A DNA stretch of 19,787 bases from Archangium sp. GTDB lineage: Bacteria > Myxococcota > Myxococcia > Myxococcales > Myxococcaceae. The DNA lies in NCBI GenBank assembly GCA_031367385.1, contig JANLPS010000136.1, positions 1 through 19,787 of the forward strand, given 5' to 3'. This document shows, one piece after another, positions 483-16,246 of this stretch (the first letter of the stretch is position 1; each line of letters opens with the position of its first letter). Both the position numbers and the translations under genes were made by a program. The notes below the pieces were generated by a model, which was given only the letters and a program-made list of their open reading frames with translations, was not told where the DNA came from and did no database searches.

Positions 483-563
483 GAAAGTTCTCGAAGGGTT
501 TCGAGAGGTTCGCTCCGGCCCCGCATTGCACCGGCGAAGGTGAGTTTCAGAAGTGAAATGGCT

Positions 564-950
564 TCAGGCGGCTCGGGAGTGGGATGACGCCGTGCGCCGT
601 GGAATCGACCGGGCTCGGGTCACCAACGCCACCAGCTCACCGGTGCGCATCATCGCGATCGCTTCGAGGCCCGACGAGCCGAGCTGCGTCTCGAGCTCGC
701 GAACCGTGACCAGGCTCGAGGTCTGCCCCACCTCGTGGAGCGGCAGCGCAGCGATGGCATCTTGAGGTCGCAGCATCGCGTAGCGCTCGAGCTCGTCGCG
801 CCGAAGCATCTTCAGGCCTCCATCGGCATCGCGCACCATCACGACCTGCGCGCCAGCGGCCCTCGCCTTGAACCACGTCACCGCCGCCGTTTGATCGGCC
901 GCAGCGAACTGAACCGCCTTGTTCGAAGTGCTCAGCAATTGGAGTTGCAT
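564..950 (-). CDS. Hypothetical protein, degenerate CBS-pair-like (128 aa)
   Basis: AADQTAAVTW...VVMVRDADGGL and SLVTVRELE...IAMMRTGELVALVTR resemble CBS repeats; same size and orientation as the neighbouring gene. Confidence 0.5.
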   Translation of the reverse strand: MQLQLLSTSNKAVQFAAADQTAAVTWFKARAAGAQVVMVRDADGGLKMLRRDELERYAMLRPQDAIAALPLHEVGQTSSLVTVRELETQLGSSGLEAIAMMRTGELVALVTRARSIPRRTASSHSRAA

Positions 951-962
951 GGCCTTTGGGAG

Positions 963-978
963 AGCAACAACCAGGCCA
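963..978 (-). promoter_or_regulatory. sigma54-type -24/-12 promoter candidate
   Basis: Minus strand TGGCCTGGTTGTTGCT matches TGGC-N7-TTGCT, ending 12 nt before the ATG at 950. Confidence 0.55.
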
Positions 979-1063
979 TTATTTTCCGCTGGGATTTACA
1001 CGAGACGGAGGCGGCCGAATGGGGCGTGCCTGTTGACGACCTGCGTCAGCCGCCACAGCGGGA

Positions 1064-1624
1064 CTACCTGGGTTCTTTGGCCTCGACGAGGGTGTCCCAC
1101 GTCTTGGTGGCCTCGGCTTCGTGCGCCAACACCGCGTTGACCGCGTCGGCCCCAAAACGGGCCTTTTCAGCGTCGAGGCTGGTCGCCTGGGCCGAGCGCG
1201 CCCGGAGGTCTGCCATCGCCTGCTCGGCCTTGGCCCGTTGTGCCGGCGTGAGTGCCGCTGTGGCCTGCTCGAACTGCCGAACGGCCTCGGAGCCGGTCAG
1301 ACGGGCCAGATTTCGCTGGGTCACGATGGCGGCCACCACGTCTTCGATGCGGTCGACCTCGTCTTCGCTGAGCCCTGCGTCGGTTCGAAGCGCGCGTTCT
1401 CGACGGGCGCGGTCGAGGGCGCCGGCATCGGTTCGGGCCATCATCAATCGCTGGTACGCAAGCCACGCCACGACCTTGGCCTCGGTCAATGGCCAGCCGG
1501 CATCGTCAGCAATGACGGGCACTTCGGCACTCGCAGCCGGGGGAGGCCCCGCGATGGGTGCTTGGGTCGCCGGCTTGGCGCAGGCCGTCGACACGCAGGC
1601 GATGAGGCAGAAGAGTCGAGTCAC
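1064..1624 (-). CDS. Putative lipoprotein, helical hypothetical protein
   Basis: Probable GTG start at 1624 gives (M)TRLFCLIACVSTAC, a lipobox-like signal followed by a Pro/Ala linker. The ORF-track start at 1702 is probably too long. Confidence 0.6.
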   Translation of the reverse strand: MTRLFCLIACVSTACAKPATQAPIAGPPPAASAEVPVIADDAGWPLTEAKVVAWLAYQRLMMARTDAGALDRARRERALRTDAGLSEDEVDRIEDVVAAIVTQRNLARLTGSEAVRQFEQATAALTPAQRAKAEQAMADLRARSAQATSLDAEKARFGADAVNAVLAHEAEATKTWDTLVEAKEPR

Positions 1625-1704
1625 GAGCGAATTCGTTGCGCAGAATGCCACGCTGGTGTGTGACTTGACTACAGTCCCATCGCCTTTCACCTCCGGAGCC
1701 ATTC

Positions 1705-2049
1705 ATGTCGGTCACTGCCACCAAAGCCACCCAAGCTGCGCAATCTGCCACTCAAGGCTACGAGAAGGCCGCCAAAGCGCCGACCGCGGCGAAGCTGAAG
1801 AGCGTGCTCAAGGCGTACGAGGCGCAGGAGCGCACCTGGGCGAAGTTGGCTCCGGCGATCTTGAAGAACTCGGCCAACGTCACCAAGACCATCGACATCT
1901 CGCCGCGCGGCAGCTCGCAGCGCACGACGGCGTATGTGCTCAACGACAACCGGGTGGTCTTCGCGCGCAGCGGCGGCATCATCGCCACCGCGCCGGTGTA
2001 CCTGGGCCCGGTCGGCCTCGACGCCGCGGCTTCGGTTTCAAAAAAGTAA
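1705..2049 (+). CDS. Hypothetical Ala/Lys-rich protein (114 aa)
   Basis: GGAG at 1695-1698 before the ATG; G/C-ending codons; ends just before sixA. Confidence 0.65.
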   Translation: MSVTATKATQAAQSATQGYEKAAKAPTAAKLKSVLKAYEAQERTWAKLAPAILKNSANVTKTIDISPRGSSQRTTAYVLNDNRVVFARSGGIIATAPVYLGPVGLDAAASVSKK

Positions 2050-2065
2050 GGTATCGTCGCCCGTC

Positions 2066-2563
2066 GTGAGGGTTTTCTTGATTCGCCACGGAGACGCGGA
2101 CGCCGAGGTCCCCGAGGCGCTCGATGACGACGCACGTTCACTGACGGCGCGAGCGCGCGACGCCTTGCCGGGCCACTTCGCGGCGCTGGCCGGGCACTTC
2201 GGCCGCGTCGACGCGATCTTCACCAGCCCCCTGGTGCGCGCGGTTCAGACCGCGACCCTGCTCTCGAATGCGCTCAAGTTCGGCGGCCCGTTTCGAGCGC
2301 ACCGCAGCCTCTTTCCCGATGCGCCGGTGGGTGGGCTCGAGGCGTTGCTCGATGAGAGCCCGCGCAAGACGCTGATTCTGGTCGGCCACCAGCCGTCGAT
2401 CGGCGCGGCGGCGGCCTACCTGCTCGGGCGCGCGAACCTGCCCAAGACGGTTTCTCCGGGCACGGTCATCGGCATCGAGCGTGATGACCTGAAGCCCGAC
2501 CCGCTGACCAGCAAGTTGCTTTGCTTCGCGCAGGTCGGCCAGCCGGTGCTCGAGACCCTCTGA
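2066..2563 (+). CDS. sixA: Phosphohistidine phosphatase SixA (histidine phosphatase family)
   Basis: RHG motif (VFLIRHGDA), RSLT, FTSPLVRAVQTA and LVGHQP. Likely GTG start at 2066. Confidence 0.85.
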   Translation: MRVFLIRHGDADAEVPEALDDDARSLTARARDALPGHFAALAGHFGRVDAIFTSPLVRAVQTATLLSNALKFGGPFRAHRSLFPDAPVGGLEALLDESPRKTLILVGHQPSIGAAAAYLLGRANLPKTVSPGTVIGIERDDLKPDPLTSKLLCFAQVGQPVLETL

Positions 2564-2577
2564 TACAAGCGTTTCGC

Positions 2578-2907
2578 ATGATGGACGACGCGGAGTTCAC
2601 GGTGGTGGCGAGCCAGCTGTTCAAGCGGGTGGTCAAGGCCGTCGACGCGAGCGACCCCGATGTGCTCGAGGCCGACTCGACCGGTGACATGGTCACCCTC
2701 ACCGCCACCAAGACCGGCGAAAAAATCGTCATCAACACCCAGCGGGCGGTCAAGCAGATCTGGGTGGCTGGCAAGGGCGCGGGGCTGCACTTTTCGTTCG
2801 GCTCGGCCGGGCAGTGGCTCGATGACAAGGGCAAGGGGCTCGAGCTGTTCGCGTGGGTCGCCGAGTGCGTCGAGGCGGCGACGGGCCTGCGGCTCGATTT
2901 GAAATGA
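2578..2907 (+). CDS. cyaY: Frataxin-family iron donor CyaY
   Basis: MMDDAEF...VINTQRAVKQIWVA...GLHF...QW frataxin/CyaY signature; ~109 aa. Confidence 0.88.
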   Translation: MMDDAEFTVVASQLFKRVVKAVDASDPDVLEADSTGDMVTLTATKTGEKIVINTQRAVKQIWVAGKGAGLHFSFGSAGQWLDDKGKGLELFAWVAECVEAATGLRLDLK

Positions 2908-4025
2908 GCGCAGTGCTGCGCGTCAGCCTGCTTCGTCAGGTGAGCGCGTCAACGACTCCGGCGGCAATGGTGGTGGCTCGGGTGTGCCGGTTGGAGCGCT
3001 CGACTGCGCAGGCGCTGGTCACCAGGCTCGGCGTCTTACCGCGCGCCTTCGATGAGGCCGAGGCCACCGCGCTGGTCGAGCAGCTTCGGGTCGCGGGAGT
3101 CGAAGCGCAGACGATACCCGGGCCAGCGACGGCGGCCCGGCGGTGCGGCGTGCACCCATCGCTCGAGGCCACCAGCGCGTGTCGCGAGTGCGGGGCATCG
3201 ATGTGCACCGCGTGCGTGCTCGAGGAAGCGCGGCCCCAGTGCCAGGCCTGCCTGGGCAAAGAGCGGCGGCGGCTGGCATTTCGAAACGTGCGGGTCGCGG
3301 TGCTGCTGGTGTTCTTGGGAGGCGTCGGCTTGTGGGCGCTCTCGCGGCAGCTGCGGCTCGACCGGCGAACGACCTGGGCGCGGCCGCTGACCGTGTCAGT
3401 GGTGTTGGTCACGCAGGGCGAGCCGAACCCGGCGCTGATACCGCGTTGGGAAGCGGCCACCGATGCGCTGACCGAGTGGTTTACCGGTGAGTGGGCCCGG
3501 TATCGTGCTCCGGGCGCGCAGCCGCCGGTGCGGTTCGTGCTCGAGAAGGTGGCGCGCGTGGAGGCGTTGCCGGTCGCTCCGGAGGACACGCAAGGCACGG
3601 TGGCGTTCGAGCGGCAGCTCAATGAGATTGACGCGCAGGTCGGCGTGCGAAGGAACGACGCGACGGTGTACGTGGCGCTCTCAGGTGGAGGCGAGGCCTC
3701 GCAGCGCGTCGAAGGCATTGGCGAGGCGGGCGGGCGACGCGGGTTGATCTACGCTGACGTGAACGCGACCGAGGTCACGCTCGAGTCGGTGGCGCTGGCG
3801 CATGAAGTTCTTCACTGCCTGGGCGCGCGAGACAAGTACGACGCGCAAGGGCACGCGGCCGGAGTGGCCGGGTTGGTGGCTCCTGAGCAGGTGCCTTTGT
3901 ACCCGCAGCCCGGCGGTGAGGTGATGGTCGGCGAGGTCGCGACCGGGCCCAACAGCGGTGAGCCGATTCGGTCACTGCGTGAGGTGCACGTGGGGCCGGC
4001 GACCGCGCGCGAGATTCGGTGGTGA
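2904..4025 (+). CDS. Membrane-anchored zinc metalloprotease with B-box-like Zn finger
   Basis: ATGA overlap with the cyaY stop. CGVH-CREC-CTAC-CQAC finger, a TM helix (VAVLLVFLGGVGLWAL), HEVLHCLGARDKY zincin motif and a downstream Met-turn-like EVM. Confidence 0.75.
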   Translation: MSAVLRVSLLRQVSASTTPAAMVVARVCRLERSTAQALVTRLGVLPRAFDEAEATALVEQLRVAGVEAQTIPGPATAARRCGVHPSLEATSACRECGASMCTACVLEEARPQCQACLGKERRRLAFRNVRVAVLLVFLGGVGLWALSRQLRLDRRTTWARPLTVSVVLVTQGEPNPALIPRWEAATDALTEWFTGEWARYRAPGAQPPVRFVLEKVARVEALPVAPEDTQGTVAFERQLNEIDAQVGVRRNDATVYVALSGGGEASQRVEGIGEAGGRRGLIYADVNATEVTLESVALAHEVLHCLGARDKYDAQGHAAGVAGLVAPEQVPLYPQPGGEVMVGEVATGPNSGEPIRSLREVHVGPATAREIRW

Positions 4026-4067
4026 GCGTGCTCGGGAGCAAAGTTGCGGGGGCTTTTCGCTGAAGGG

Positions 4068-4216
4068 GCGATCAATTCACGTCAATCGGAGGGTCTTCTT
4101 TGGAGAAGTGCGGCCAATTCACGTGAATCGGTGGCCCCGCTCCGGAAAAGCTCGACCAATTCACATGAATTGGTGCTCCCGCTCCCAAAAAGGCCGAGCA
4201 ATTCACGTGAATCAGC
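4068..4216. repeat. Four degenerate 42-bp tandem units with palindromic core ATTCACGTGAAT
   Basis: CAATTCAC(G/A)T(G/C)AAT begins at 4073, 4115, 4157 and 4199, an exact 42-bp period, in a convergent intergenic region. Confidence 0.85.
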
Positions 4217-4235
4217 CCCGTCTCACGCCGATAAC

Positions 4236-4264
4236 CCCTTGAACTGCCTGTCAGGCTTCAAGGG
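4236..4264. terminator. Hairpin between convergent genes, possible terminator
   Basis: CCCTTGAA-ct-GCCTG-t-CAGGC-TTCAAGGG imperfect inverted repeat; no clear U-tract. Confidence 0.35.
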
Positions 4265-4298
4265 TGTAGAGCGGGCCAGAGTTGCGCACGAGGGCGGC

Positions 4299-5207
4299 TC
4301 AGGCCTCGAGATCGAGCCGAATCAACGCCTCGTCTTGCCGCGCGCCCTCGAACACATGCCACGCGGCGACCACGTCGAGAAATGACGGCCCGACGCTCGC
4401 GAACACCGTCAGCTCTTCAGCGCTTTGCCGCCCCGGCTGCCGGTTCGCCAACACGTCACTCAACGTCGATGTGAAGGGCACGCCCCAGTCGAGCGCGGGC
4501 TCGGCCGCGTCGGTGAAGCGCTTCGCCCGACGCAGCAGCGCCGCCGGCAACGGCGGAGTCGCATAGCCGTCTGCGTTCAGCACCGTCACGTGCGCGCCAG
4601 GCCGCAGCCGGTCGGTCGGCAGGGTCACTTCGCCGGTCAGCACGATCAAGTCGGCGTTCTCGACGGCCTCTTCGGGTGAGTTCGTGCCACGCACCGAGGT
4701 CGCCAGCGTCGACTGCAGCCGCATCGCCAGCTCGGTGTTCGCGGCCGGGTCTTCTTCGTACAGCCACACCCGTTGAATCGAGCGCACCAGCCGAATCGCC
4801 TTGAGCGCCCCACTCGCCGCGGCCCCCGAGCCCAGCACCGCAACCTGTCGCGCGTCTTCGCGAGCCAGTACGTCAGCCGCGAGGGCGCCGACCAACGAGG
4901 CTCGCAGCGAGGTCAGATGCCCCGCGTCCATCACCGCGAGCACTTTGCCGGTCTTCACGTCGTGCAGCTGCAGCACCGAGCGGCTCTCACCCGGCTTCGC
5001 CAGCGCACTGCGCACCGTCACCGCGAAGGCCGGCACCGTTGGCCAGGTGGCCTGCCGAACCTGCGTGCTCAGCGCCTCGTGCTGCGAGCTGACGGTGTGC
5101 GACTGGTACGGCAGCGACGCGGTCAGCGCCTCACGCAGCTCACGCAGGAGGTGCAGCGCCTGCATGTGCCGCGAGACATCTGCGCGCGAGAGAAAAGCCG
5201 TGAGCAT
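4299..5207 (-). CDS. Ornithine cyclodeaminase / mu-crystallin family protein
   Basis: FLSRADV N-terminus, LHDVKTGKVLAVMDAGHLTSLRA, Rossmann VAVLGSGAAA, GRQSAEELTVFASVG...DVVAA. Confidence 0.85.
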   Translation of the reverse strand: MLTAFLSRADVSRHMQALHLLRELREALTASLPYQSHTVSSQHEALSTQVRQATWPTVPAFAVTVRSALAKPGESRSVLQLHDVKTGKVLAVMDAGHLTSLRASLVGALAADVLAREDARQVAVLGSGAAASGALKAIRLVRSIQRVWLYEEDPAANTELAMRLQSTLATSVRGTNSPEEAVENADLIVLTGEVTLPTDRLRPGAHVTVLNADGYATPPLPAALLRRAKRFTDAAEPALDWGVPFTSTLSDVLANRQPGRQSAEELTVFASVGPSFLDVVAAWHVFEGARQDEALIRLDLEA

Positions 5208-5393
5208 GCGCGTCGATACAACGCCGATGCCCGCCTTGACAGCAGCGAAATCTCACGGCGGGCAGGTCACCGCGGTGTCGTGCTGATAGCAGCCGTTGCC
5301 TTGCGACACCCACCCCGGCGTCGGCGCGGTCGTACAGGTGCAGAGGTACTCGACCAGGTGATTGGCGCCGCTACAGAACACGCCCTTGCCCGT
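5126..5393 (+). repeat. Direct repeat copy 1 (268 bp)
   Basis: Manual alignment to 7093-7361 gives 16 substitutions and 1 indel. Spans the lipoprotein 3' end, the intergenic gap and the OCD 5' end. Confidence 0.95.
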
Positions 5394-6878
5394 GCAGGCC
5401 GCGTATTCGGCGACGGTGCAGGTGTTGTTGCTGACGTGGTGAAAGCAGTTGTTGCCCACGTCGACCCAGCCCAGCCCGAGCAGCTCGGCGCGACCGGCGG
5501 AGTCGACACCGCAGGTGTAGAGGCGGTCACTTGGCGCGGCGCAGAAGAAGCCCTGATTCACCGGGGTCTCTTTCATCGGCGTGCTCTGGGGCCCGACGTA
5601 GATCTCGTGCCACGCGCCAGCGATCTCCACCGGCGTCGTCGCCACCAACGGGTTGTACCCTTCCTGCCCGAATTCGACTTGCAGCAGGGTCCACTGCTCA
5701 TAGTCGGCCCAGGCGGCTCCCCAATAGGCGGCGAGGTCTGCGGGGGTGATCGACCCGACCGGTTTGACCAACTTCTTCGCGGTCACCAGCTTGAGCGCGT
5801 TGGTGAATTGCCAGAACTCCATCGCCACGTCGAAGGCCTTGCGCGTGAAGGGCGCGAACTGCGAGGTCTCGGCTTGCGAGGTGTAGAGCGAGAGGCCTGA
5901 CGTCGCCTCGACGATGTCGGTGTGCAGCGGCTTCATCGGGCCATCGAAGACCGGCAGGCTGCCCTGCGCGGGGTCGAACCAGAGGCTGGCGTTTTGAAAC
6001 CAGGCCACCTTGCTCCAGTCAGTCGTGTCGGAGCGGTTGATGGCGGTGTTGAAGAGAAACTGCACCTGACACGGGCCAGGCACCGGCACCTGCGTGGTGC
6101 AGGCATTGTTGATCAGGGTGAAGACCATCTGCTGCTTGACCTGGGTGACCTGCCCGCTCGACGGCCCGACGCGCCACGAAGGCACGCTCTGCACGGTTCG
6201 AATGCGAAGGCGGCCGGCGCCGCTGAAGGGGTGCGGGGCGGTGGTGAGCCACCAGGGTTGGCGAATCGCCGAGAAGCTGCCCTGAATGTACGGGTTGCTG
6301 CCCGAGCCGAGCTGACCGTGGCTGTCGAAGGGCTGCCAGAAAGCGCTGCCGCCCTGAGTGCGCGGGCCGCTGGTCGTCCACTGCCACCAATCACCACCGA
6401 CCGGGTCGATGAAGCCGACCGATTCACCCGCGAGGGTGGGCGAGGTGCAGCCGGCGATGGTGCTGGCCGTGGGCGTCCACCGCATTGAAGACGACACGTT
6501 GGCGCCATTGACGTGGGTGGCGTTGAGGGCGTTGGTCCAGGCGACTCCTGTGGGGGCGATGGTGGGCCCGCCGGCCCCCTGCGCGCAGCCCCGGCCGAGC
6601 CCGAAGAACGACATCTTGGGCCCAGGCACGAGGCTCGTGGGGTTGGTCGCCGTCACCCAGGTGCCGCCGACGTTCTTCTTCGCCAGCACCGCGTCGGGCG
6701 AGGTCCAGCTCGAGTCGACCTTGAGGTAAAACGCCTTGGGGTTGGTCGTCTCGACCGCTGGAGCGACCCAACTGCTCAAGGCCTGAGACTCGCTGGCGAC
6801 GTCATCGGTCGCTGACGGCGGTTCGGCCGGGCCGCACGCGGTCAGCGCGCACACCAGCACCATCACTTGGGTTTTCAC
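5253..6878 (-). CDS. Large secreted lipoprotein with C-terminal Cys-rich repeats, function unknown
   Basis: GTG at 6878 gives (M)KTQVMVLVCALTAC (lipobox LTAC); Trp/Thr-rich body; two C-terminal GxFC...GWV..GN.C..H repeats. Confidence 0.75.
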   Translation of the reverse strand: MKTQVMVLVCALTACGPAEPPSATDDVASESQALSSWVAPAVETTNPKAFYLKVDSSWTSPDAVLAKKNVGGTWVTATNPTSLVPGPKMSFFGLGRGCAQGAGGPTIAPTGVAWTNALNATHVNGANVSSSMRWTPTASTIAGCTSPTLAGESVGFIDPVGGDWWQWTTSGPRTQGGSAFWQPFDSHGQLGSGSNPYIQGSFSAIRQPWWLTTAPHPFSGAGRLRIRTVQSVPSWRVGPSSGQVTQVKQQMVFTLINNACTTQVPVPGPCQVQFLFNTAINRSDTTDWSKVAWFQNASLWFDPAQGSLPVFDGPMKPLHTDIVEATSGLSLYTSQAETSQFAPFTRKAFDVAMEFWQFTNALKLVTAKKLVKPVGSITPADLAAYWGAAWADYEQWTLLQVEFGQEGYNPLVATTPVEIAGAWHEIYVGPQSTPMKETPVNQGFFCAAPSDRLYTCGVDSAGRAELLGLGWVDVGNNCFHHVSNNTCTVAEYAACTGKGVFCSGANHLVEYLCTCTTAPTPGWVSQGNGCYQHDTAVTCPP

Positions 6879-7092
6879 GGGAGTCTTTCGAATGACGAGG
6901 GGCACCTTGGTGAAAGAACCAAGGCCCCTGCGACGTTCACGAGGCTCCGGCGCTTGCGTTACGGCAGCGGTGGAATCCACGAGCAGGTCGAGTCGACCTG
7001 GCAGGCTTCGAAGCCGAACTCCTTGCCGTCGGAGCCTCCGTAGCGGCCGATCATGTTCGCCAAGACCGAGCCCAAATCGAACGGCGCGGTGG

Positions 7093-7174
7093 GCGCCTCA
7101 CGCAGCTCGCGCAACAGGTGCAACGCCTGCATGTGCCGCGAGACATCTGCGCGCGAGAAAAAAGCCGTGAGCAT
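7093..7174 (-). pseudogene. 5' fragment of the OCD-family gene
   Basis: MLTAFFSRADVSRHMQALHLLRELREA matches the first 27 codons of 4299-5207, then runs into unrelated sequence (ORF 6959-7174). Confidence 0.8.
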
Positions 7175-7219
7175 GCGCGTCGATACAACGCCGATGCCCG
7201 CCTTGACAGCAGCGAAATT

Positions 7220-7361
7220 TCACGGGGGGCAGGTCACCGCGGTGTCGTGTTGATAGCAGCCGATTGCCTTGCGACACCCAACCCGGGCTCGGTGCGGTGG
7301 TACACGTGCAGAGGTACTCGACCAGGTGATTGGCGCCGCTGCAGAAGACGCCCTTGCCCGT
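7220..7361 (-). pseudogene. 3' fragment of the Cys-rich lipoprotein gene, frameshifted
   Basis: Reads GKGVFCSGANHLVEYLCTCTTAPSPGWVSQGN, then +1 frameshift, then GCYQHDTAVTCPP-stop; no upstream gene body. Confidence 0.8.
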
Positions 7362-7423
7362 TCAGTCGGTCTGCGACGGAGGGGTGTGCGATCTGTTCGC
7401 CTCTTGAGTCAGACCGCCTTGGG

Positions 7424-8926
7424 TCAGACGCCGCCGGGGCGAAAGACTTGCAGCACGACGGGTGCCTCAGCCAGGGGGGCACCGCCACATCGAACCCGGG
7501 GCACGGTCGCCGGCTCACGACCCAGCAGGGTACGGTAGAGCGAGAGAAACGACCGGGGCCTGCGCAGTGGGTGAAAGAAGCGCCAGAGCTCGAACGGCGA
7601 CAACGGTACGACCTTCGGCATGAAGCTCCAGGTGCGACTTCGCCCGAAGGTGACCGCTGTCGACCCGAACTCTCCTCGAAAAAGACCTAACAGGTCGGCT
7701 GCCCAGCACTCGAAGCCGACGAGGTACGCTGCGGCGGGGTCGTCGCAGTCAACCCGCGCAAACGAGCAGTCGTGAGGGCGGTACTCGAGAACGTGGTACT
7801 CGTCGCCCGAGCGCAGGGCCAAGGCCAGCGCCGGCTTTCTGCCCAGGGTACGGGCGCCGTCAAGCGAGTGAAGCCCGCGAAACAGCCCGTGACCGTAGAA
7901 GTAAGCGGCCAAGTCGTTCAAATGAGCGCACAGCTCCTCGAGCTCGCCCACGGCCAGCTCGGCTTTCCCGCTGGCCGGCGCATACGCCTCGAGCAGCTCC
8001 ACATCTCCGCGGAACTCGCGGTCTGGCCAGCTCGCACGTGGGGCAGTCTTCAGAAATGGGAGTTCAGCCTCGACGTTCTCCACTCGGTAGTGTCGCAGAT
8101 GAATGGTCTGCCCAGGCGTCGGAGCCAAGAAGAGCCCGTCTGGCGTCAAGGCCTGCATGGCGGTCGCGACGCGAGCTGAATCGGCGAAGAAGGCGTTGTG
8201 GTTGAGCCACTCGCGATCGGCGTCGAAAGAGAGCCCTCCGCCACAGATGAGCATGCCGACGGGGGCCTCCCAAACGGCGCGTAAGTTGGCTTCTTCTTCA
8301 AGCAGCTGGCCCGCGACTTTCAGGGTATCGAAGGGCACGATTTTTTCGACCTCACCCGCCACCAGAAACGACCAATTGCTGCTGTTGTTCGTACACCCCC
8401 ACAGCCCCGGCTTGCTCACCAGCTGACGAAAGGCCTTGATGCTGCTCGGAAGGAAGGGGGTATCGACTGCCGAGAAGAAATTGCCGTGGCCCGCTTGATC
8501 GCGAACCAGAAACGGCAAGACGTCCCACTCGTCGAGGTGGTCGCGAGTGACGTGGTCGGGCGTCAAGAAGAAGACCTCGAGGTCACCCACCCGAAACCCT
8601 TCTCCGGGCTGGGCGAGGTGAACCGTGAAACCCATTTCGCCCAGAATCTGGCGTGCCGCGCTCGAAGAACGAACCGAAAGGATGATGGGAATTGAGCGCT
8701 CAAGGCGATTGAGCGTGGGAATGTCGAAGTGATCTTCATGCTCGTGGGAAATAAACACGGCATCAATCGCTGGAAAGAGGCCCAGGTTCACCACCCGCGG
8801 CGGGTACATGGCACCGACTGACCGGGCATGCCCGAAGTTCTCAGTCAGCAGCGGGTCGACCAACAAGCGCGTCGCTGGGGTCTGAAACAGCCACCCTTGG
8901 TGGCCGAGAAACGTGGAGGAGAACAT
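7424..8926 (-). CDS. Metallo-beta-lactamase-fold enzyme (500 aa), putative tailoring enzyme
   Basis: FLGHQGWLF...LLVDPLL and FISHEHEDH (HxHxDH), plus a long C-terminal extension. Start overlaps the upstream stop (TAATG at 8924-8928). Confidence 0.85.
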   Translation of the reverse strand: MFSSTFLGHQGWLFQTPATRLLVDPLLTENFGHARSVGAMYPPRVVNLGLFPAIDAVFISHEHEDHFDIPTLNRLERSIPIILSVRSSSAARQILGEMGFTVHLAQPGEGFRVGDLEVFFLTPDHVTRDHLDEWDVLPFLVRDQAGHGNFFSAVDTPFLPSSIKAFRQLVSKPGLWGCTNNSSNWSFLVAGEVEKIVPFDTLKVAGQLLEEEANLRAVWEAPVGMLICGGGLSFDADREWLNHNAFFADSARVATAMQALTPDGLFLAPTPGQTIHLRHYRVENVEAELPFLKTAPRASWPDREFRGDVELLEAYAPASGKAELAVGELEELCAHLNDLAAYFYGHGLFRGLHSLDGARTLGRKPALALALRSGDEYHVLEYRPHDCSFARVDCDDPAAAYLVGFECWAADLLGLFRGEFGSTAVTFGRSRTWSFMPKVVPLSPFELWRFFHPLRRPRSFLSLYRTLLGREPATVPRVRCGGAPLAEAPVVLQVFRPGGV

Positions 8927-10476
8927 TAAGGAGACCTCAGGCTGAAGGGCTCACCGTATTTGATCGACGGCAATGAGGTGCCAACGCTGGCGGCCTGCGC
9001 TGCTTGTATCGCCAGCGCTTTGGCCGACATCGACGCAATCTTCGCCGAGAAGAAGCTCGACTCTGCGTCGAAGCGAAACCACGGTGTCGAGCCCAGCGCG
9101 TAGGGGAAGAAGTACTTCAGGCCAGCTCGTTGAACCAGTCGGCGAATATTGACTTCGCTCACCCCCAGCATCGGGGAGGGCTCAAAGAGCCCCAGCGTCG
9201 TGACATACCAGGGCCACAAGCGCATCAGCGGCAACAACTCCTCGAACGAGTCTTGATACCCCTTCTGCATTCCCGTCCCGACGGTGCCAGCGCTGTAGAT
9301 GTTGCGCGCGAACAAGATGCCGGGCCGCGAACGCCCTTCCAGCCGGCCAATGAGCCAGTCGGTCTGAGCGTCAGTCAAAGCCGCATCGGCGATGAAGGTC
9401 GCCGTCGAGTGGGCCGTCTCGACGAGGTAGCAATTCCAACCATGAGGCAGTGACGCGGGGTACTCGCCGATGAAGGGAAAAGCGGTCACGGTGATTGAAC
9501 CGAAGGTGACCTTCTCGCCGTGGCCGAGGCTGACCACCTTGCGGTCGGCGCCGAGTATCTGGTGAATGATCTTGCGCAGATCGACTTCCCAGGGTCGGTT
9601 GACGGGGTCTGCTTTGGGCACGACGATGGTGGTTTGCAGCGGCAGCGCCAGCAACGTCCCCAGGCTGAAGTGATCAGCGTCTTGATGTGTAATCAATACC
9701 GCGTCGGGAGAAGGCAACGCGTGCATCGACAACTGCTCACACCTCGGCCCATAGGAAGTGAACAGGTGCTCGTCAGCAAACTCTGATGAGAAGACCTTGG
9801 GCAGCTCGTTGTCTCTAAAGTCGAACCGAGGCTGCAGGTAGGGGTCGACCCATACCGAGGCGTCGGGTGACTGAAAACTGACGGCCGCGTGCCCGAGCCA
9901 GGTCACGCGATCTCCCTCGCCTCTCTTGAGGCGCGCCGGCACCCGGTCGGCGCCCGCCGCAAGCGTCTCGACGATGCCCTGCTGAACCCAGACCGCGAGC
10001 ATTTCGTTGTCGAGCTCGACGCCCCACTCCGCGGCCCGCACCAGCAGCTCATCTTTGCCGATGCCCTGCATCAGGGCCGAAATGACTCGACCAAAGCCCT
10101 CGGTCATTTCTCCGGTCTCGTAGGCGAGCATGTCGTCGGCGCGTCGCTTGCGACCGTCGGCGAGCACCACGCGAAGTCGCTCCGGCTGAAAGTGCAGCAT
10201 GTCTTCGGCGTCGGGAGCGACCTTGAACTCGACTCGGCCGTCGACCAACGTGTTGGTGATCAGCCGATCGGCGAAGGGCACACCGAGTTGAATCTGATTC
10301 AAGCGGACCATCGACGTGGCCGACAAAGCGGCCTGGCGCAAGAAGGTGAGGGCGCCATCGAGGTGCGCCAGCCGCTGGCGCCCATCGCTCAGGTTCTGAG
10401 CGGTCACGCCGATGTTGCCCATGCGGAGCTCTGGCAACACATACGAAGACAGGGTGAGCCGTGGGCTCGACGTCAT
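8926..10476 (-). CDS. MBL-fold enzyme resembling CmlA-type non-heme diiron beta-hydroxylases (516 aa)
   Basis: ~185-aa N-terminal extension, then VTWLGHAAVSF...VDPY, ITHQDADH, PFIGEY, FIADA, WPWY and PYALGSTPW, in the order I recall for the CmlA family. ATGA overlap with the upstream gene. Confidence 0.7.
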   Translation of the reverse strand: MTSSPRLTLSSYVLPELRMGNIGVTAQNLSDGRQRLAHLDGALTFLRQAALSATSMVRLNQIQLGVPFADRLITNTLVDGRVEFKVAPDAEDMLHFQPERLRVVLADGRKRRADDMLAYETGEMTEGFGRVISALMQGIGKDELLVRAAEWGVELDNEMLAVWVQQGIVETLAAGADRVPARLKRGEGDRVTWLGHAAVSFQSPDASVWVDPYLQPRFDFRDNELPKVFSSEFADEHLFTSYGPRCEQLSMHALPSPDAVLITHQDADHFSLGTLLALPLQTTIVVPKADPVNRPWEVDLRKIIHQILGADRKVVSLGHGEKVTFGSITVTAFPFIGEYPASLPHGWNCYLVETAHSTATFIADAALTDAQTDWLIGRLEGRSRPGILFARNIYSAGTVGTGMQKGYQDSFEELLPLMRLWPWYVTTLGLFEPSPMLGVSEVNIRRLVQRAGLKYFFPYALGSTPWFRFDAESSFFSAKIASMSAKALAIQAAQAASVGTSLPSIKYGEPFSLRSP

Positions 10477-12233
10477 GACGCACGCTCCGTGGCATTCGCT
10501 TCATTATCGGCGGTTGGCGAAGCCTGCCTCAGCGCGAGCTGAAGCAACTCCGGGCTTTCGTTGATGAGCTTTCGAATGACGTTCAACGAAGACTCGAGTC
10601 GCCGCCCAGCAAAGAGCACCAGCGGGTAGGGGCAATAGTCTTTGGCGCCAACCGCCTGCGCGCACTCGCCGGGTACCTCAGCCACTTGCCGCTGCGCGAT
10701 CTCTCGGTACCTCTCGAGCTCATCGACCGGCAGGCCCATGGCGTCGGCCACATCTGCGAAGGCGTCGGTCTTGAGGTCGAGCCGCGCGGGGTCAGCCTTC
10801 GCCCATCGGTAGGCCTCGAAGAGCCGTTCTCCCTTCGTGGCCAAGCCGACCGCCATGATGGCTTCTGCCAACCCCGGTCTGGCCGACATGGCAAACCCGA
10901 CGCGAACGCAGAGCCCTCGGCCCTTCTCTTCGGCCAGCCAGGCATCCAAGCTCTTCATGAGCAATGCACACGTGAGGCAGTCGAGGTTCGCGATGACCGA
11001 AAGGTCATAGCCCCCGGGGCTGCGGGTCACCGAAACCGTCACCGCTTGGGCGTCGAACGACACCTGCTTCGCCTCGGCCAACTGGCGCCCGAGCCACCAA
11101 GGAGATTCTCGAAGCTGCTCCAACTCGGCTTGAAAGACACCGGCTCGGTCAGCCCCAATGAGGTGTGGCACGACTCCTGAGAGGACGAGCCCGAAAACCA
11201 AAAGCCACGCGACCCCGACCAGCGTCACTTCGAAGAGCGGGGGCAGGTGACGTGACACGACGAAGAGAAAATACACCCCCGAAGCCAGATTGACGGCATG
11301 CACCACGGCACACAGTCGGCAAAACATGCGGTTCTGCACCATCACCCAAAAGAACAGAGCCGCCTCGGGCAGCACAGCCAACGACAGACACCCCGTGAGA
11401 TATGCACCGGTCGGAAAGCACCCCAGCACCATCACTTGTGCTGAGAAAAACGCGACCCCGAGCCCCGACGCGGGAATGCCAGCCACCCTGGCAAAGCGGG
11501 AGTGAAGGAGATCATTGCAACCGCTGTGAGCGCCGCCGCACAGAAAATTCACGCTCTCACTGCCCCCGTACACACTCCGAATCATCGCGTAGCTCAGCCC
11601 CAGACCCACAGCGGCCAGACCGCCAAGCACCGCCACTGTGACCGGAGAGGCTCGAACCGCGCCCAAGGCCAAGAGCGCTGCCACCAGCCCAAGAAGAACG
11701 CGGGGCGCCCCGGGGGCTGAAGCAGGCCCGACCAAGTCGGTTCGAATTCGAAGCTCCTCGAAGAGACGCTCGACCAGTCTTCGACCGAGCCGGCCTGGTT
11801 CTGGGTGTGGAGGCCGGTGGAGTTCGGGGAGCTCGATGACGGCCAACACTCCGGAGAACTCGCGCGTAAACTGTGGGCGAGTCAGCGACCTCGATTTGTA
11901 GACAGAGTCCCACAGCTTGACCTCGGTCGCGCCCACCGACTCAATGAGCCCAAACCCACGGCTGCCGAGACCGCAGCACAAGACGACCCCAGGCTCGGGC
12001 GACTCCAAGCTCTCAACCTGAATCTCGCCCGTGGTGACCTCGAGCCCCAGGGCCTTGGCCGTCTCGACCACGGCAAGCATCGAGGTGGCGTTTTTCTGGG
12101 CTTCCACCAGCGAGCGCACGTGGTCGCGAGAGTACGGCAGCCCCAGACGACGACTGGCTTCGGCGAGGGCATGCGAGCCTTCAGCGACCCGCCAGGACTT
12201 CGGAACTTTCTCTTCGTCGGAGAGCTCGAGCAT
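10473..12233 (-). CDS. Fusion of C39-peptidase-like domain, VKOR and thioredoxin/DsbA-like domain
   Basis: Probable ATG at 12233 (MLELSDEEK). C39-like SMLAVVETAKALGL...LWDS...FTREFSGVL without an obvious catalytic Cys; VKOR loop CGGAHSGCNDLLHSRFA..AGIP and CRLC; C-terminal CLTC thioredoxin-like motif. Confidence 0.85.
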   Translation of the reverse strand: MLELSDEEKVPKSWRVAEGSHALAEASRRLGLPYSRDHVRSLVEAQKNATSMLAVVETAKALGLEVTTGEIQVESLESPEPGVVLCCGLGSRGFGLIESVGATEVKLWDSVYKSRSLTRPQFTREFSGVLAVIELPELHRPPHPEPGRLGRRLVERLFEELRIRTDLVGPASAPGAPRVLLGLVAALLALGAVRASPVTVAVLGGLAAVGLGLSYAMIRSVYGGSESVNFLCGGAHSGCNDLLHSRFARVAGIPASGLGVAFFSAQVMVLGCFPTGAYLTGCLSLAVLPEAALFFWVMVQNRMFCRLCAVVHAVNLASGVYFLFVVSRHLPPLFEVTLVGVAWLLVFGLVLSGVVPHLIGADRAGVFQAELEQLRESPWWLGRQLAEAKQVSFDAQAVTVSVTRSPGGYDLSVIANLDCLTCALLMKSLDAWLAEEKGRGLCVRVGFAMSARPGLAEAIMAVGLATKGERLFEAYRWAKADPARLDLKTDAFADVADAMGLPVDELERYREIAQRQVAEVPGECAQAVGAKDYCPYPLVLFAGRRLESSLNVIRKLINESPELLQLALRQASPTADNEANATERAS

Positions 12234-12246
12234 CGGTGCTGAAAGC

Positions 12247-14397
12247 TTACGCCGCGTCACCACCACCATCGAGCTGCATCTGCACCAACTGGGCGTAGGC
12301 GCCATTCAAGGCGAGCAATTCGTGATGGCGCCCTTTTTCAGCGATGCGCCCGTCTTGCATCACCAGAATGACGTCTGCGTGCGCCACCGTACTGAGTCGA
12401 TGCGCGATCACGACGCGAGTGCACTGAAGGCGAGCGAGCGCTTGCTGCACCTGATGCTCGGTGATCGCATCGAGAGCGCTCGTCGCCTCGTCGAGAACGA
12501 GAATCTTCGGCTTTCGAGCCAAGGCACGAGCGATCGCGAGACGCTGCCGCTGCCCGCCCGAGAGCGTCGTACCCCCCTGTGGAAGAATGGTATCGAGACC
12601 GGTCGGCAGTGCTCCGATGTCTTCAGCAAGACACGCCACTCGAATCGCCTCGTGAACCTCTTCGTCAGTCGCCCCGGGCGCAGTCTTCAAGACGTTCTCT
12701 CGAATGCTGCCAGAGAAGATGTGCGGTTGCTGAAGAACGATACCCATTTGTTGGCGCAGCGCTCGCAGCTCGAGCTCTTGCAGCTCGACGCCGTTGAACG
12801 AGATCGAGCCCGACGATGGCCGGTAAAGCCCCAGCAGCAGCATCGAGAGGGTCGATTTGCCTGAGCCGGAGCGGCCGACCACCGCCACCATCTTTCCCGG
12901 CTCAATGTGCAAGTCGACATCTTGGAGCACCAAGGGGGTGTCCGGTGCGTACCGAAAACTGACCCCTTTGAGGTCGATGCTCCCGTCGAGCTCGATCTCG
13001 CGACGGGGTCGGCCGGGTGGCTGCTCGACTTCGCTGTCGAAAACGTCATCGAGCCGCTCGCATGCGCTGGCAATGGCTTGAAAGGTGGAGGCCGTGTTGA
13101 TGAGGTTAGCCAGCGGTGTCAGCAGCGCGGAGGCGAGTGCCCACAGCCCGAGCATGGTGCCGAGCGACACCTGCCCGCTGAGCACCTGCTGGGCTCCAAA
13201 CCCCAGGAGAATGAGTGGAGCCGCCGTCTGCAGCGTTCCTTTGATCGCGTCGATCCACGCCTCGAACTTGCTGCGGGCGGTCATGACCTCGGCGTAGGTC
13301 AGCCTGCGCGGTACCCACTCATCGAGGCTTGCTTCTTCGGCGCCCATCGACTTGAGGTCGTTCACGGCAGTCAACATTTCGCTGAGGCCTTCATGCGATC
13401 GAGAGGTGGCTTCCAGCTCGCGTCGGGCGTACTGGCGGAGCGGCGCTCGACTCGCCCAAAACACCACCCCCATCAGCGCCCCGACCACCAGCGTGGTCAG
13501 CGCAAGCAGGGGGCTGAGCGCGAACAAGATGATGAAATAGAGCAGCGCGAGCGCCCCGTCGAGGAGCGAGCTCAGCGCCCCCTGGGTCAGAAACTGCCGA
13601 ACTTCTCCAATGGTATTGTAGCGGGCCAGCAAATCTCCTGTGTGCCGCGACTGAAAGTACGCCAGGGGCAAGCCCATCAAGTGCCGAATGAATGTGAACG
13701 GGAGCGCCATATCAAACCGGGCCCGCACCTCGGTGAGCAGATGTGCACGCACGATAGAGGCGACGAACTGCCCCGCGAGCACGCAGGCAAACCCCGCCAG
13801 GAGCACCACCAACAAGCGGTAGTCGCCGCGCGGCAGCACGCGGTCGATCACTGACCCTGTCAGAATTGGCACGGCGAGGCCGACCATCTGTAAAAGGGCC
13901 GTCGTCGCTAAGATTCGGCCCCAGCGCGACCGCTTGACGTGACGCACAATCCACGCCCAGCTCTGGCTGTCGGTCTGACCTCCGCCGGGCACAAATGCTT
14001 CGGTCGGTTCCAACAGCAACGCCACGTGGGTAAAGGCCCTGTTGAACTCGTCGAGGGAGAGCGTCTCGGGGCCACTGGCCGGGTCGATGATGTCTACCCG
14101 GTTGCCCCGAAGGCGCTCGAACACGACGAAGTGAACCCCTTTCCAGTGGAGAATCGCGCCGGGCTCGAGGTACCCGACCTGGTCGTTCTCGACCTGAACG
14201 CCCTGCCCATCAAGCCCCAGCTTTCGAGCCGCGTGGAGCAGGTCACGCGCCGTCGACCCCGAGCGACCTCGCCCGACCACCTGGCGCAGCTCGTCGAGCT
14301 TCGTTCGACGCCCGTGATAGCTGAGCACCATCGCGAGGCAGGCGATGCCGCAGTCCATCGAAGACATCTGCTGCACGAATGGAATTCTCTTCGCCAC
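12247..14397 (-). CDS. Peptidase-containing ABC transporter (PCAT; SunT/LagD-type bacteriocin exporter)
   Basis: C39 motifs QQMSSMDCG, HFVV and IIDP; TM domain; Walker A GRSGSGKS; LSGGQ; LDEATS; IAHRLS. GTG start. Confidence 0.95.
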   Translation of the reverse strand: MAKRIPFVQQMSSMDCGIACLAMVLSYHGRRTKLDELRQVVGRGRSGSTARDLLHAARKLGLDGQGVQVENDQVGYLEPGAILHWKGVHFVVFERLRGNRVDIIDPASGPETLSLDEFNRAFTHVALLLEPTEAFVPGGGQTDSQSWAWIVRHVKRSRWGRILATTALLQMVGLAVPILTGSVIDRVLPRGDYRLLVVLLAGFACVLAGQFVASIVRAHLLTEVRARFDMALPFTFIRHLMGLPLAYFQSRHTGDLLARYNTIGEVRQFLTQGALSSLLDGALALLYFIILFALSPLLALTTLVVGALMGVVFWASRAPLRQYARRELEATSRSHEGLSEMLTAVNDLKSMGAEEASLDEWVPRRLTYAEVMTARSKFEAWIDAIKGTLQTAAPLILLGFGAQQVLSGQVSLGTMLGLWALASALLTPLANLINTASTFQAIASACERLDDVFDSEVEQPPGRPRREIELDGSIDLKGVSFRYAPDTPLVLQDVDLHIEPGKMVAVVGRSGSGKSTLSMLLLGLYRPSSGSISFNGVELQELELRALRQQMGIVLQQPHIFSGSIRENVLKTAPGATDEEVHEAIRVACLAEDIGALPTGLDTILPQGGTTLSGGQRQRLAIARALARKPKILVLDEATSALDAITEHQVQQALARLQCTRVVIAHRLSTVAHADVILVMQDGRIAEKGRHHELLALNGAYAQLVQMQLDGGGDAA

Positions 14398-14489
14398 GAG
14401 CGTGAGACGCTATCACGCGCATTCTGAAGGACGACTTACCGCCCGCTTTTCTGGCCTCGTGCCGGGGGTGACCTACACTCGTCGCCGAA

Positions 14490-15848
14490 ATGCGTCGCGC
14501 TCCCTCCGCCTCTTGGCTCGCCTTGGTGATCGCCGCCCACGCCACGTCAAGCTTCGGTGAGAGGCTCACCCTGCCTCAGGCGGTCAGTCGGGCGATGGAG
14601 GTCGACCCCTCCCTCGCTGCGGCGCACACGCTCGAAGATCGAACCAAGCTGGCAGTTCTGCGTGCCCAGCTCGACCGTGTCTCGGTCACGGTTGATGGCC
14701 AAGTCTCCGAGCTGTGGAACCGGTACGGCATTGGCCTTTCGACGGAGCAGGCTCTTGGCGCAGAGGTGCCCACGAACCAGGGGTTGTTCGGCCTCACGGC
14801 CGTCGTTTCGGTGCCGCTCTTCTCGGGGTTGCGGGTCGAGTCGACCGTCGGGCGGGCGCAAAAGCTTCGAGAAGCTCAAAGCGGCTCGGTGACGTTGAGT
14901 CGAAACGACTTGGCGCTCTCGGTCGCTCGCGCGTACTGGGCCATCAGACGCACCTCGCTGTTGACCGAAGTTCAGTCCCGCTCGGTTTCACGACTCGAAG
15001 AGGCGGAGCAGATCGTCAGCGTTCGAGTTCGAGCGGGGTTGGCCCCGCCAATCGATCTGAACCGAGCCAAGCTGCGCCGCCTGCAACTGACGGTCGCGCT
15101 GGTCGAGCTCGAGGGTCAGGCCCGGCAAGCCGCGGCCGAGTTCGCCGTGGCCCTCTCGCTTTCGAAAGAGGTCGAGTTGGTCGATATGCCAAACGTCAGA
15201 CCACTGCTCGAAAAGACGCTCCCCGCAGTCGAGCTCCTCGTCGAAGATGCCAAGCGCGACCGCCCCGAGTTGGCCATCGCCCACCTTCAGGTCGAGGCTC
15301 AGCGCTCTGGCGTCAGCATCGCTCGCTCGGGCTATTTCCCGCAGCTTTCGGCGATCAGTCTGCTGCAGCTCGGCAACAACCCGCAGATCTTGAGCGCAGG
15401 CTCAAAGGTCAGCCCGACCTCATGGAACCCGTTTCTCAATGTGTCGGCCAACATCACCTTCGGAGCAGTGCTGTCGGGCAACATCTTCAACATGCTCAGC
15501 ACCTACACCGCAGTTGCTGATGCAACGTACGAGCTCGACCGACTGACCGAGGAGGAGCGACGCGCGGCTCGTCTCATTGAGACGAACGTTCGAACCGCCT
15601 ACATCAAGGTTCAGGCGTTGATGAAGCGACGAACCCCCCTCGTCGAGGCGCATGAAGTCGCCGCCGACAATCTGACGATTCTGGAGGCCCGCTACGCGCA
15701 GGGGTCATCGCTTGTCATCGAGCTGCTCGACTCGCAGCTCGAGCTGACGAACGCCGAGCTCAATCTCAGTGACCTTGACGCGCGGCTCGCCCTGGCTTGG
15801 CTCGAGCTCCAAGCGGCGCTCGGCGTCACGCTCGGTACCGAGCCCTAA
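14490..15848 (+). CDS. TolC-family outer membrane efflux protein
   Basis: Signal peptide, LTLPQAVSRAM, VSVPLFSG, RPEL...ARSGYFPQLS and RYAQG..LVIELLDSQ; divergent from the PCAT gene. Confidence 0.9.
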   Translation: MRRAPSASWLALVIAAHATSSFGERLTLPQAVSRAMEVDPSLAAAHTLEDRTKLAVLRAQLDRVSVTVDGQVSELWNRYGIGLSTEQALGAEVPTNQGLFGLTAVVSVPLFSGLRVESTVGRAQKLREAQSGSVTLSRNDLALSVARAYWAIRRTSLLTEVQSRSVSRLEEAEQIVSVRVRAGLAPPIDLNRAKLRRLQLTVALVELEGQARQAAAEFAVALSLSKEVELVDMPNVRPLLEKTLPAVELLVEDAKRDRPELAIAHLQVEAQRSGVSIARSGYFPQLSAISLLQLGNNPQILSAGSKVSPTSWNPFLNVSANITFGAVLSGNIFNMLSTYTAVADATYELDRLTEEERRAARLIETNVRTAYIKVQALMKRRTPLVEAHEVAADNLTILEARYAQGSSLVIELLDSQLELTNAELNLSDLDARLALAWLELQAALGVTLGTEP

Positions 15849-15892
15849 AAAGAACAACCGCGCTGGCGACGTTGAAGCGATCGCCAACGCGG
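15847..15892 (-). terminator. Rho-independent terminator for the precursor gene
   Basis: Minus strand CCGCGTTGGCGA-N11-TCGCCAGCGCGG (12-bp stem with one G-U pair) followed by TTGTTCTTTTT, 22 nt after the precursor stop. Confidence 0.75.
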
Positions 15893-15914
15893 GGAGTGCT
15901 CGATTCACTGATTG

Positions 15915-16079
15915 TTACGGGCAGTAGCTCGGGCCGCACTTCGAGCCGTACATAAATACTTGATAAGGGTTGTTGAGGGGCGAGCAACAGCCATAGATGG
16001 TCATGCCGCCACCGTGGCTTGCAAGCGACTCTTCAGAAACGGGCTTCAGGGCGGTCTTCAGCGAAAGCATCTTCTTCAT
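15915..16079 (-). CDS. Double-glycine-leader RiPP/bacteriocin precursor peptide (54 aa; not in ORF track)
   Basis: Manual translation: MKKMLSLKTALKPVSEESLASHGGG|MTIYGCCSPLNNPYQVFMYGSKCGPSYCP-stop. With cleavage after G25 the leader has V-12, S-11, L-7 and GG. Flanked by a promoter and a terminator; PCAT nearby. Confidence 0.85.
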   Translation of the reverse strand: MKKMLSLKTALKPVSEESLASHGGGMTIYGCCSPLNNPYQVFMYGSKCGPSYCP

Positions 16080-16129
16080 GGGGTTGTCCGGGTTGGGGTG
16101 GGTTGTTAGGTGATTCGATGGTGAGCTTT

Positions 16130-16145
16130 AGCAATACGGGGGCCA
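16130..16145 (-). promoter_or_regulatory. sigma54-type -24/-12 promoter of the precursor gene
   Basis: Minus strand TGGCCCCCGTATTGCT = TGGC-N7-TTGCT (GG-N10-GC), 50 nt upstream of the ATG. Confidence 0.65.
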
Positions 16146-16246
16146 GGGGCAGCCTCCGAGTTTCAAGCCTTTGACGCTGACTCCACGTGCACCCGAAGTG
16201 CACAGCTGCGCTTCAGATGCACTTGCGCTTCTCTCGAAGTGAAAAA

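Follow-up and report, generated by a model that had tools for sequence, protein, structure and literature searches.

The window analysed here, a 19,787-nt stretch of Archangium sp. DNA (NCBI GenBank assembly GCA_031367385.1, contig JANLPS010000136.1, positions 1 to 19,787), carries a gene, MBL1, that lies among genes for a candidate peptide precursor and its export. An initial annotation, made from the letters alone, had read the open reading frame (ORF) at 8926-10476 as a CmlA-like diiron beta-hydroxylase that may act on a ribosomal peptide. We confirmed this ORF on the minus strand, at a length of 516 aa. The genes and features concerned are as follows.

7424..8926, minus strand: MBL2, a second protein with a metallo-beta-lactamase (MBL) fold, 500 aa, with the motif HEHEDH; its start overlaps the MBL1 stop by one base
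8926..10476, minus strand: MBL1, 516 aa, with an N-terminal domain like the recognition element (RRE) of peptides made on the ribosome and modified after translation (RiPPs) and a CmlA-type MBL-fold domain (both predicted)
9385..9387, minus strand: D364 of MBL1, aligned with CmlA D403; in 31 of 32 full-length rows
9463..9465, minus strand: E338 of MBL1, aligned with CmlA E377; in 32 of 32 full-length rows
9670..9687, minus strand: metal motif H264-Q-D266-A-D268-H269 (HxDxDH), from the MBL1 sequence and family rows
9943..10476, minus strand: N-terminal domain of MBL1 (residues 1-178), predicted to adopt an RRE-like fold that an insertion of ~80-90 residues interrupts
10473..12305, minus strand: VKOR (vitamin K epoxide reductase) fusion of a C39-like part (catalytic Cys not seen), VKOR and a CxxC-bearing C-terminal domain; probable start 12233
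12247..14397, minus strand: peptidase C39-containing ATP-binding cassette (ABC) exporter with the catalytic Cys motif QQxSSMDCG (Pfam, NCBIfam)
14490..15848, plus strand: TolC-type outer-membrane channel, divergent from the exporter (Pfam, NCBIfam)
15915..16079, minus strand: 54-aa candidate precursor with a double-Gly leader and a 29-30-residue core; annotated as a gene in the protein collection

On the minus strand the genes for the C39 exporter, the VKOR fusion, MBL1 and MBL2 follow one another in this order with overlapping stop and start codons, the ATG of MBL1 overlapping the stop of the gene upstream. The core of the candidate precursor contains 4 Cys, 4 Tyr, 1 Phe and 2 Asn, in agreement with the four Tyr and one Phe counted initially, and its leader aligns in register with the double-Gly leaders found beside MBL1 relatives. 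With two disulfides, the otherwise unmodified core has a calculated monoisotopic mass of 3275.3 or 3218.3 Da, according to the cleavage site. The C39 exporter likely removes this leader, and the VKOR fusion probably acts as an enzyme dedicated to disulfide formation in the four-Cys core.

Predicted fold, putative metal site and family of MBL1

The AlphaFold2 model of MBL1 had a predicted local distance difference test score (pLDDT) of 95.7 and a predicted template modelling score (pTM) of 0.94. Whole-length comparison by VIA-align, covering residues 2-513, placed it closest to FrsH (Z 27.4, root-mean-square deviation (rmsd) 3.6, 380 aligned) and CmlA (Z 23.0-23.3), the non-heme diiron beta-hydroxylases of FR900359 (PDB 8A90) and chloramphenicol (PDB 4JO0, 5KIK, 5KIL), respectively. 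The hydrolases UlaG (Z 20.4) and NAPE-PLD (Z 18.9) have the same MBL subfold and matched the catalytic domain only, residues 177-516. Foldseek gave the same ranking (FrsH E 2e-20, CmlA E 1.5e-18). At the sequence level, the best PDB match of MBL1 in phmmer was FrsH 8A90 (E 2.5e-6), with CmlA at E 1e-3, and a 14-sequence MBL1 profile searched against the PDB found CmlA (E 2e-15), FrsH (7e-12), NAPE-PLD (1.4e-8) and UlaG (0.28). By sequence profile, Foldseek and VIA-align the closest solved relatives were thus CmlA and FrsH, and not UlaG or NAPE-PLD, with identities of ~14-20% in the structural alignments. The initial annotation had named best matches to hydrolytic MBLs lacking the CmlA Glu and Asp ligands as evidence that would speak against it; FrsH and CmlA were the best matches, and both ligands are kept, as E338 and D364. 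Databases label many members of the MBL1 family 'UlaG'.

Most of the motifs initially said to parallel CmlA occur in the order given, namely GHA (195-197), THQDADH (263-269), PFIGE (334-338), AD (363-364) and YALG..PW (YALGSTPW, 459-466), and W.Y is matched only loosely, by WPWY (421-424). Alignments pair H305, H307, D309, H310, E377 and D403 of CmlA with H264, D266, D268, H269, E338 and D364 of MBL1, the E338-E377 pairing being anchored by the CmlA mutant chain E377D in the PDB. Five of these residues (H264, D268, H269, E338, D364) are retained in MBL1, as is the closing motif YAxG..PW of CmlA and FrsH. Among the 32 full-length relatives, D266 and E338 were present in all 32, and H264, D268, H269 and D364 in 31, with P0151 as the one degenerate row. 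The Asp in place of the second His of HQDADH is therefore real and, because 32 of 32 relatives of full length carry it, the alignment indicates that it is a hallmark of the MBL1 family and not decay.

We take CmlA E430 to be the seventh metal ligand and CmlA D403 to have a bridging role. At the E430 position, for which the sequences allow two registers, Glu was found in 1 of 32 rows at 392 and in 0 of 32 at 408; position 409 is Asp or Glu in 29 of 32 rows and might stand in for E430. Hydrolase-type MBLs presumably carry His ligands at motifs 2, 3 and 5, where MBL1 has D266, E338 and A460. As in CmlA, Glu takes the place of His at the third motif, and the last motif is without His. Three further residues near the site, W347, N348 and R419, are invariant in the family and have no CmlA counterpart. 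Iron-binding MBL oxidoreductases carry more acidic ligand sets, and flavodiiron proteins (ROO type), which have an MBL-fold iron site, show a His-to-carboxylate change, to Glu, in motif 2 (accessible sections of PMC7785958), so that HxDxDH is compatible with iron. Flavodiiron proteins differ from MBL1 in carrying a flavodoxin domain, which a Pfam search did not find in MBL1, and in reducing O2 or NO without hydroxylating. A precedent is PqqB, an MBL-fold iron hydroxylase whose pathway begins with a ribosomal peptide; it is mononuclear and acts on an excised small intermediate, and it was not among the listed structural matches of MBL1 (Foldseek, VIA-align).

Pfam recognised MBL1 only as Lactamase_B_2 and Lactamase_B_3, without a match to the PqqD domain, and the NCBIfam scan of MBL1 returned nothing above cut-off. 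CmlA_N (PF18456) matched 0 of 51 rows of the MBL1 family at E 0.1. In the positive control it gave 6 matches in three relatives, every one on a contig other than that of the MBL1 copy. Membership of the CmlA family, as first assigned, could not be upheld: MBL1 lacks CmlA_N, a Glu at the E430 position and a non-ribosomal peptide synthetase (NRPS) partner, and the second His is D266. MBL1 would work most like CmlA, yet is not a member of that family.

The MBL1 family comprised 14 proteins including the query in a word search, and 47 clusters at E 1e-30 in a profile search, followed by a sharp drop to more distant families. It is rare: members turned up in 4 of the 401 genomes sampled across the phylum and in 4 of the 208 from the taxonomic family, with the host's own genome counted in both. 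In a quick tree of 59 rows, from which two rows were left out for a missing anchor motif, 31 MBL1-family rows formed one clade (Shimodaira-Hasegawa-like approximate likelihood ratio test, SH-aLRT, 99), separate from one CmlA-type row and three sister groups. We claim no order of descent, because the single CmlA-type row forms a long branch. A scan of the genome collection with the family alignment gave, among the matches listed, three distant loci (27-29% identity over ~100 residues), which were not used.

Modelled alone, the N-terminal domain (residues 1-178) reached pLDDT 96. When it was compared with 48,161 chains, 20 rows had a Z of at least 5, and 12 of these were RiPP enzymes or RRE proteins: ThcOx at the top (Z 8.2, rmsd 2.4, 83 aligned), then PbtF (7.1), TigE (6.8), MibB (6.5), MadB (6.5), TbiB1 (6.4), MccB (6.1), NisB (5.9), lasso B1 (5.7), McbBCD (5.2), the heterocyclase 4V1T (5.1) and TbtB (5.0). 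About 80 residues superposed, at rmsd 2.4-4.1. Because these are spread from residue 2 to 175, the predicted RRE-like unit appears to be discontinuous, split by an insertion after the first strands. Winged-helix domains of protein-modifying enzymes (2XDV, 5DOO) were also among the matches. As a model, the RRE-like domain strengthens the ribosomal-peptide idea beyond what the initial annotation had offered.

The predicted complex of MBL1 with the precursor lends weak support to leader binding, scoring 0.56 against 0.00 for the best control, with at least 28% agreement of contacts between runs and a partner pLDDT of at least 38. In the benchmark of this score, 116 of 157 solved pairs and 2 of 215 mismatched pairs came up to the mark, but only 18 of the solved pairs and both mismatches lay at values of 0.60 or below.

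Fusions of an RRE with an MBL have already been catalogued computationally as RREFam045, Metallo_Beta_Lactamase_RRE (PMC12710340, Table S1). The portions of that paper that were covered give no function, and MBL1 passes none of the three Pfam models (PF00753, PF21221 and PF05402) that a figure legend there lists. In PMC7794379, CmlA-type enzymes are said to work on amino acids that are tethered to NRPS carrier domains. No CmlA-like enzyme acting on a RiPP was found in the literature searched, which left out most subscription papers, and the portions of PMC7470986, PMC13097080 and PMC12002111 that were covered hold nothing on the MBL1 family.

Gene neighbourhoods of MBL1 and related families

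Relatives of MBL1 were present in 16 of 20 metagenome loci retrieved with a family-specific DNA pattern and in three genome loci; the remaining four (L008, L011, L014, L025) encode no MBL1 relative and were dropped. Together with the window these loci fall into 7 lineages at 60% identity, with the fragments L015 and L023 placed by likeness. In all 7 lineages a RiPP enzyme, an exporter or a candidate precursor lies beside at least one copy, and in 5 of the 7 Pfam recognises a RiPP enzyme or a C39 exporter next to the MBL1-family gene. L017 and L022 were too short to judge.

A double-Gly precursor together with a C39 exporter occurs in the window, L019, L031 and L032. The simplest of these is L019 (4142-12162), where three double-Gly precursors, rich in Cys and bearing paired CxxC motifs, are accompanied by TolC, an adaptor-like gene and a C39 exporter, and MBL1, lying between the three precursors and the TolC and exporter genes, is the sole enzyme seen. 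L031 and L032 are richer, with LanB, JmjC, ATP-grasp, radical SAM, a C39 exporter and a double-Gly precursor, and L031 with LanC in addition. Elsewhere, the MBL1 relative adjoins the N-terminus of a lantibiotic dehydratase (L010), lies with two more MBLs, TfuA, a dehydratase-like gene and a candidate peptide ending in TIMCGW next to an aminopyruvatide (ApyA) cluster (L027), stands ~0.3-0.8 kb from a short LEERIAP-type peptide (L013, L015, L016, L024), or directly follows a short repeat peptide (L033). NCBIfam named 0 of 12 candidate peptides tied to the MBL1 family. As side observations, the precursor core of the LanB cluster shared by L031, L032 and L036 has no Cys, a radical SAM/SPASM gene is present there, and YcaO/TfuA and a further MBL occur in G356.

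The initial annotation had seen no NRPS or carrier protein near MBL1. A scan of 15 window proteins agreed, giving no adenylation, condensation or carrier match. In the host genome (98% complete) no condensation domain and no CmlA_N match was found, 0 of 24 adenylation-like matches lay above cut-off, and none of the 17 PP-binding (carrier) matches was on the MBL1 contig; one contig (C322) holds a stand-alone adenylation-like gene adjoining a carrier gene. Adenylation-like matches were likewise absent from 21 loci (148 kb) and the window. Carriers too were absent from the loci, in a search whose control found only the carrier queries themselves. In the loci fetched, the MBL1 family adjoins ribosomal-peptide genes and not NRPS genes, which upholds the cluster setting first proposed.

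MBL2 represents a family separate from MBL1, with 199 matches, and was found in 5 of 401 genomes. It begins directly with the MBL domain, without an N-terminal extension, and its C-terminal part is possibly SCP2-like. H61, H63, D65, H66, E133 and D155 do not vary across the 25 relatives aligned. Of four MBL2 copies fetched, three have short candidate peptides nearby, and such peptides also directly precede two plasmid relatives; MBL2-family genes are absent from every other MBL1 locus fetched. MBL1 and MBL2 probably act separately on the same peptide. Loci of MBL2 relatives with short candidate peptides nearby are L089, L090, L092, L094 and L095.

Over the wider clade, the RiPP link is specific to the MBL1 family and some sisters. 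Several sister loci were noted in passing. A plasmid of Streptomyces sp. ADI95-16 (L038:11626-21255) carries a sister-family MBL beside LanC, a GrrM/OscB radical SAM gene and LanB. In P0185 and P0199 sister-family MBL domains stand behind long N-terminal parts that by eye look radical SAM-like and lantibiotic-dehydratase-like. A THGDNDH sister family lies near deoxyhypusine-synthase-like genes in L069, L071 and L081, as does a copy with unread motif in L072, and an arginase-family gene is close by in L082; these five loci come from one genome family, so they are not independent, and they offer a lead for polyamine or hypusine-like hydroxylation. A stand-alone THSHGDH paralog occurs in G000:C321 (L005, L035) and in L075, L076, L078, L079 and L084. 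Of 171 genomes from the family to which the window belongs, 103 hold distant matches to the profile, and the neighbouring genes were ordinary where fetched.

Proposed reaction and competing explanations

We propose that MBL1 is a leader-dependent iron oxygenase that hydroxylates the core of the double-Gly precursor, a reading to which we assign a probability of about 0.5. The precursor would be made on the ribosome and bound in the cytoplasm by MBL1, perhaps also by MBL2, the leader likely being gripped by the RRE-like N-terminal domain. H264, D266, D268, H269, E338 and D364 would hold most likely two irons, the first site having one His fewer and one carboxylate more than that of CmlA and the seventh ligand being absent or replaced by D409. 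The reduced site and O2 would then add oxygen to the core, most likely at a beta carbon. The C39 exporter would cut at the Gly-Gly site and export the product, and the VKOR fusion would form two disulfides. The broader claim, that RRE-fused, CmlA-fold, HxDxDH iron oxygenases form a distinct family acting on the precursors of many unrelated RiPP clusters, sometimes as sole enzyme, we put forward more tentatively, at slightly under even odds.

Several observations weigh against these proposals. Not every copy is in a RiPP setting: five near-identical loci (L009, L012, L018, L020, L021) carry the gene without a RiPP neighbour, L026 lacks the precursors present in its relative L019, and the gene is in pieces in L015, L023 and L024. 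Sister families that share the Glu/Asp set are widespread, being found in 125 of 401 genomes at E 1e-14, and, among the matches listed for the 97 of 155 picked ORFs that were scanned, only one of 16 fetched sister-family neighbourhoods looked RiPP-like (L080). The candidate cores beside MBL1 relatives are unrelated to one another, and a homolog search with the window's precursor returned only the precursor itself. The RRE match of the N-terminal domain is split and only middling in score (Z 5.0-8.2), and such values can reflect a common arrangement. [quoted passage not shown] The N-termini of FrsH and CmlA matched weakly as well (Z 5.4, with rmsd 10.4, and Z 4.3), and Foldseek of this domain gave no match at E 0.001, its top rows being CmlA and FrsH at E 0.02. 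At the metal site two CmlA positions are altered, H307 being D266 and the E430 position lacking Glu, and the diiron site is for this reason not assured. The iron content, O2 use and turnover of MBL1 we infer from sequences and models, and MBL2 could perform the chemistry instead.

The suggestion that a ribosomal peptide is hydroxylated thus gained from the RiPP neighbours and the RRE-like domain in its ribosomal part, and found no support in the family for Tyr/Phe as the target: the candidate peptides beside MBL1 relatives share no aromatic residue. Tyr was rejected as a family-wide target, being absent from 4 of 12 candidate peptides, one of which (L013) also lacks Phe and Trp. All 12 contain Asn or Asp, Gly and Ser, with core boundaries guessed. 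Tyr or Phe remains a possible target in the window's own cluster. If MBL1 hydroxylates, we regard Tyr/Phe as a rather unlikely target and Asn/Asp as an equally unlikely one, and some other residue as a somewhat better guess that is still short of even.

The alternative that survives best, though an unlikely one, is that MBL1 modifies the precursor without hydroxylating it, by Zn- or Mn-dependent hydrolysis (of an amide or ester, or as leader trimming) or by another oxidation such as desaturation, cross-linking or decarboxylation. It would accord with the bare Lactamase_B_2/B_3 assignment by Pfam, the altered ligand set and the invariant W347, N348 and R419, and the large differences among the cores next to relatives hint at a reaction that does not depend on any one side chain. 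However, the hydrolase-type His residues at motifs 3 and 5 are replaced as in CmlA, the nearest characterised relatives are hydroxylases, and the cluster already has a C39 peptidase.

We consider it improbable that the substrate is an unrelated protein or a small molecule, the position of MBL1 in the cluster being incidental. Through overlapping stop and start codons MBL1 is joined to the VKOR fusion on one side and to MBL2 on the other, all behind the C39 exporter, and RiPP neighbours recur in 7 of 7 lineages; such a role would nevertheless fit the stand-alone MBL1-family copies, the sister families, which are mostly outside RiPP clusters and in some cases beside deoxyhypusine-synthase-like genes, and the winged-helix domains (2XDV, 5DOO) among the N-terminal matches. 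Very doubtful, in our view, is that the metal site of MBL1 is weakened and the protein serves mainly to bind the leader or as a scaffold subunit, with MBL2 (HxHxDH) as the catalyst. MBL1 does lack two CmlA ligands, and MBL2, whose gene overlaps that of MBL1 by one base, keeps HEHEDH and invariant E133 and D155 and starts at the MBL domain. The six site residues are, however, kept in 31 of 32 full-length MBL1 relatives, other fetched MBL1 loci have no MBL2-family gene, and in L019 MBL1 is the only enzyme. Least probable of all, with hardly any chance, is that MBL1 acts like CmlA proper on an amino acid bound to a carrier protein from another place in the genome, as its closest solved relatives act on carrier-bound amino acids and as the adenylation-like and carrier genes of C322 might allow, because the genome has no condensation domain and no adenylation match above cut-off, no fetched locus has an adenylation-like gene, and MBL1 has no CmlA_N, whereas three relatives hold true CmlA_N genes on contigs other than that of MBL1.

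Should MBL1 prove to be a leader-guided hydroxylase, RiPP chemistry would gain a cofactor type, and gene-encoded peptides could be hydroxylated with no need of an assembly line. If the broader family exists as proposed, its members would make up a class of RiPP tailoring enzymes that is new, and this would suggest one shared fold, used in two ways, for the NRPS-docking N-terminal domain of CmlA and the RRE. With a peptide substrate that is soluble, the mechanism of substrate-triggered O2 activation in the CmlA-type fold would be easier to study, and CmlA can readily be compared with the His-to-Asp site that nature provides. The minimal L019 cluster, with three precursors, one enzyme and an exporter, is the best test case and together with the window makes the test cheap.

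Further observations in the window

Single assembled contigs from two runs, which may be the window's source, span 7311-17474 and 7311-19787 with 0 differing letters. The cluster has a GC content of 0.63 against 0.66-0.67 in the flanks. The gene content suggests a myxobacterial host. No HlyD adaptor gene was seen in the window, though the C39 exporter and TolC are present. A promoter scan of the window gave 0 sites. Terminator-like sites numbered 7 against 8.5 expected, and the one after the precursor (15857-15870) is accordingly no evidence of termination.

An nSTAND1-WD40 gene (16247-19787), adjacent to the precursor, was considered as a part of the system, since L019 and L026 have one. It was rejected because the window copy is only the fifth-best genome match of the L019 gene and so not its ortholog, whereas the best match of the L019 exporter is the window exporter. 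On the other side of the cluster, a 284-bp direct repeat (92.6%) at 5115-5397 and 7082-7365 covers the start of an ornithine-cyclodeaminase-like gene, and its copies flank a 575-aa ORF (5253-6980) without a Pfam match. Reads over this repeat-flanked region showed strain variation and a 571-base skip at 6384-6956.

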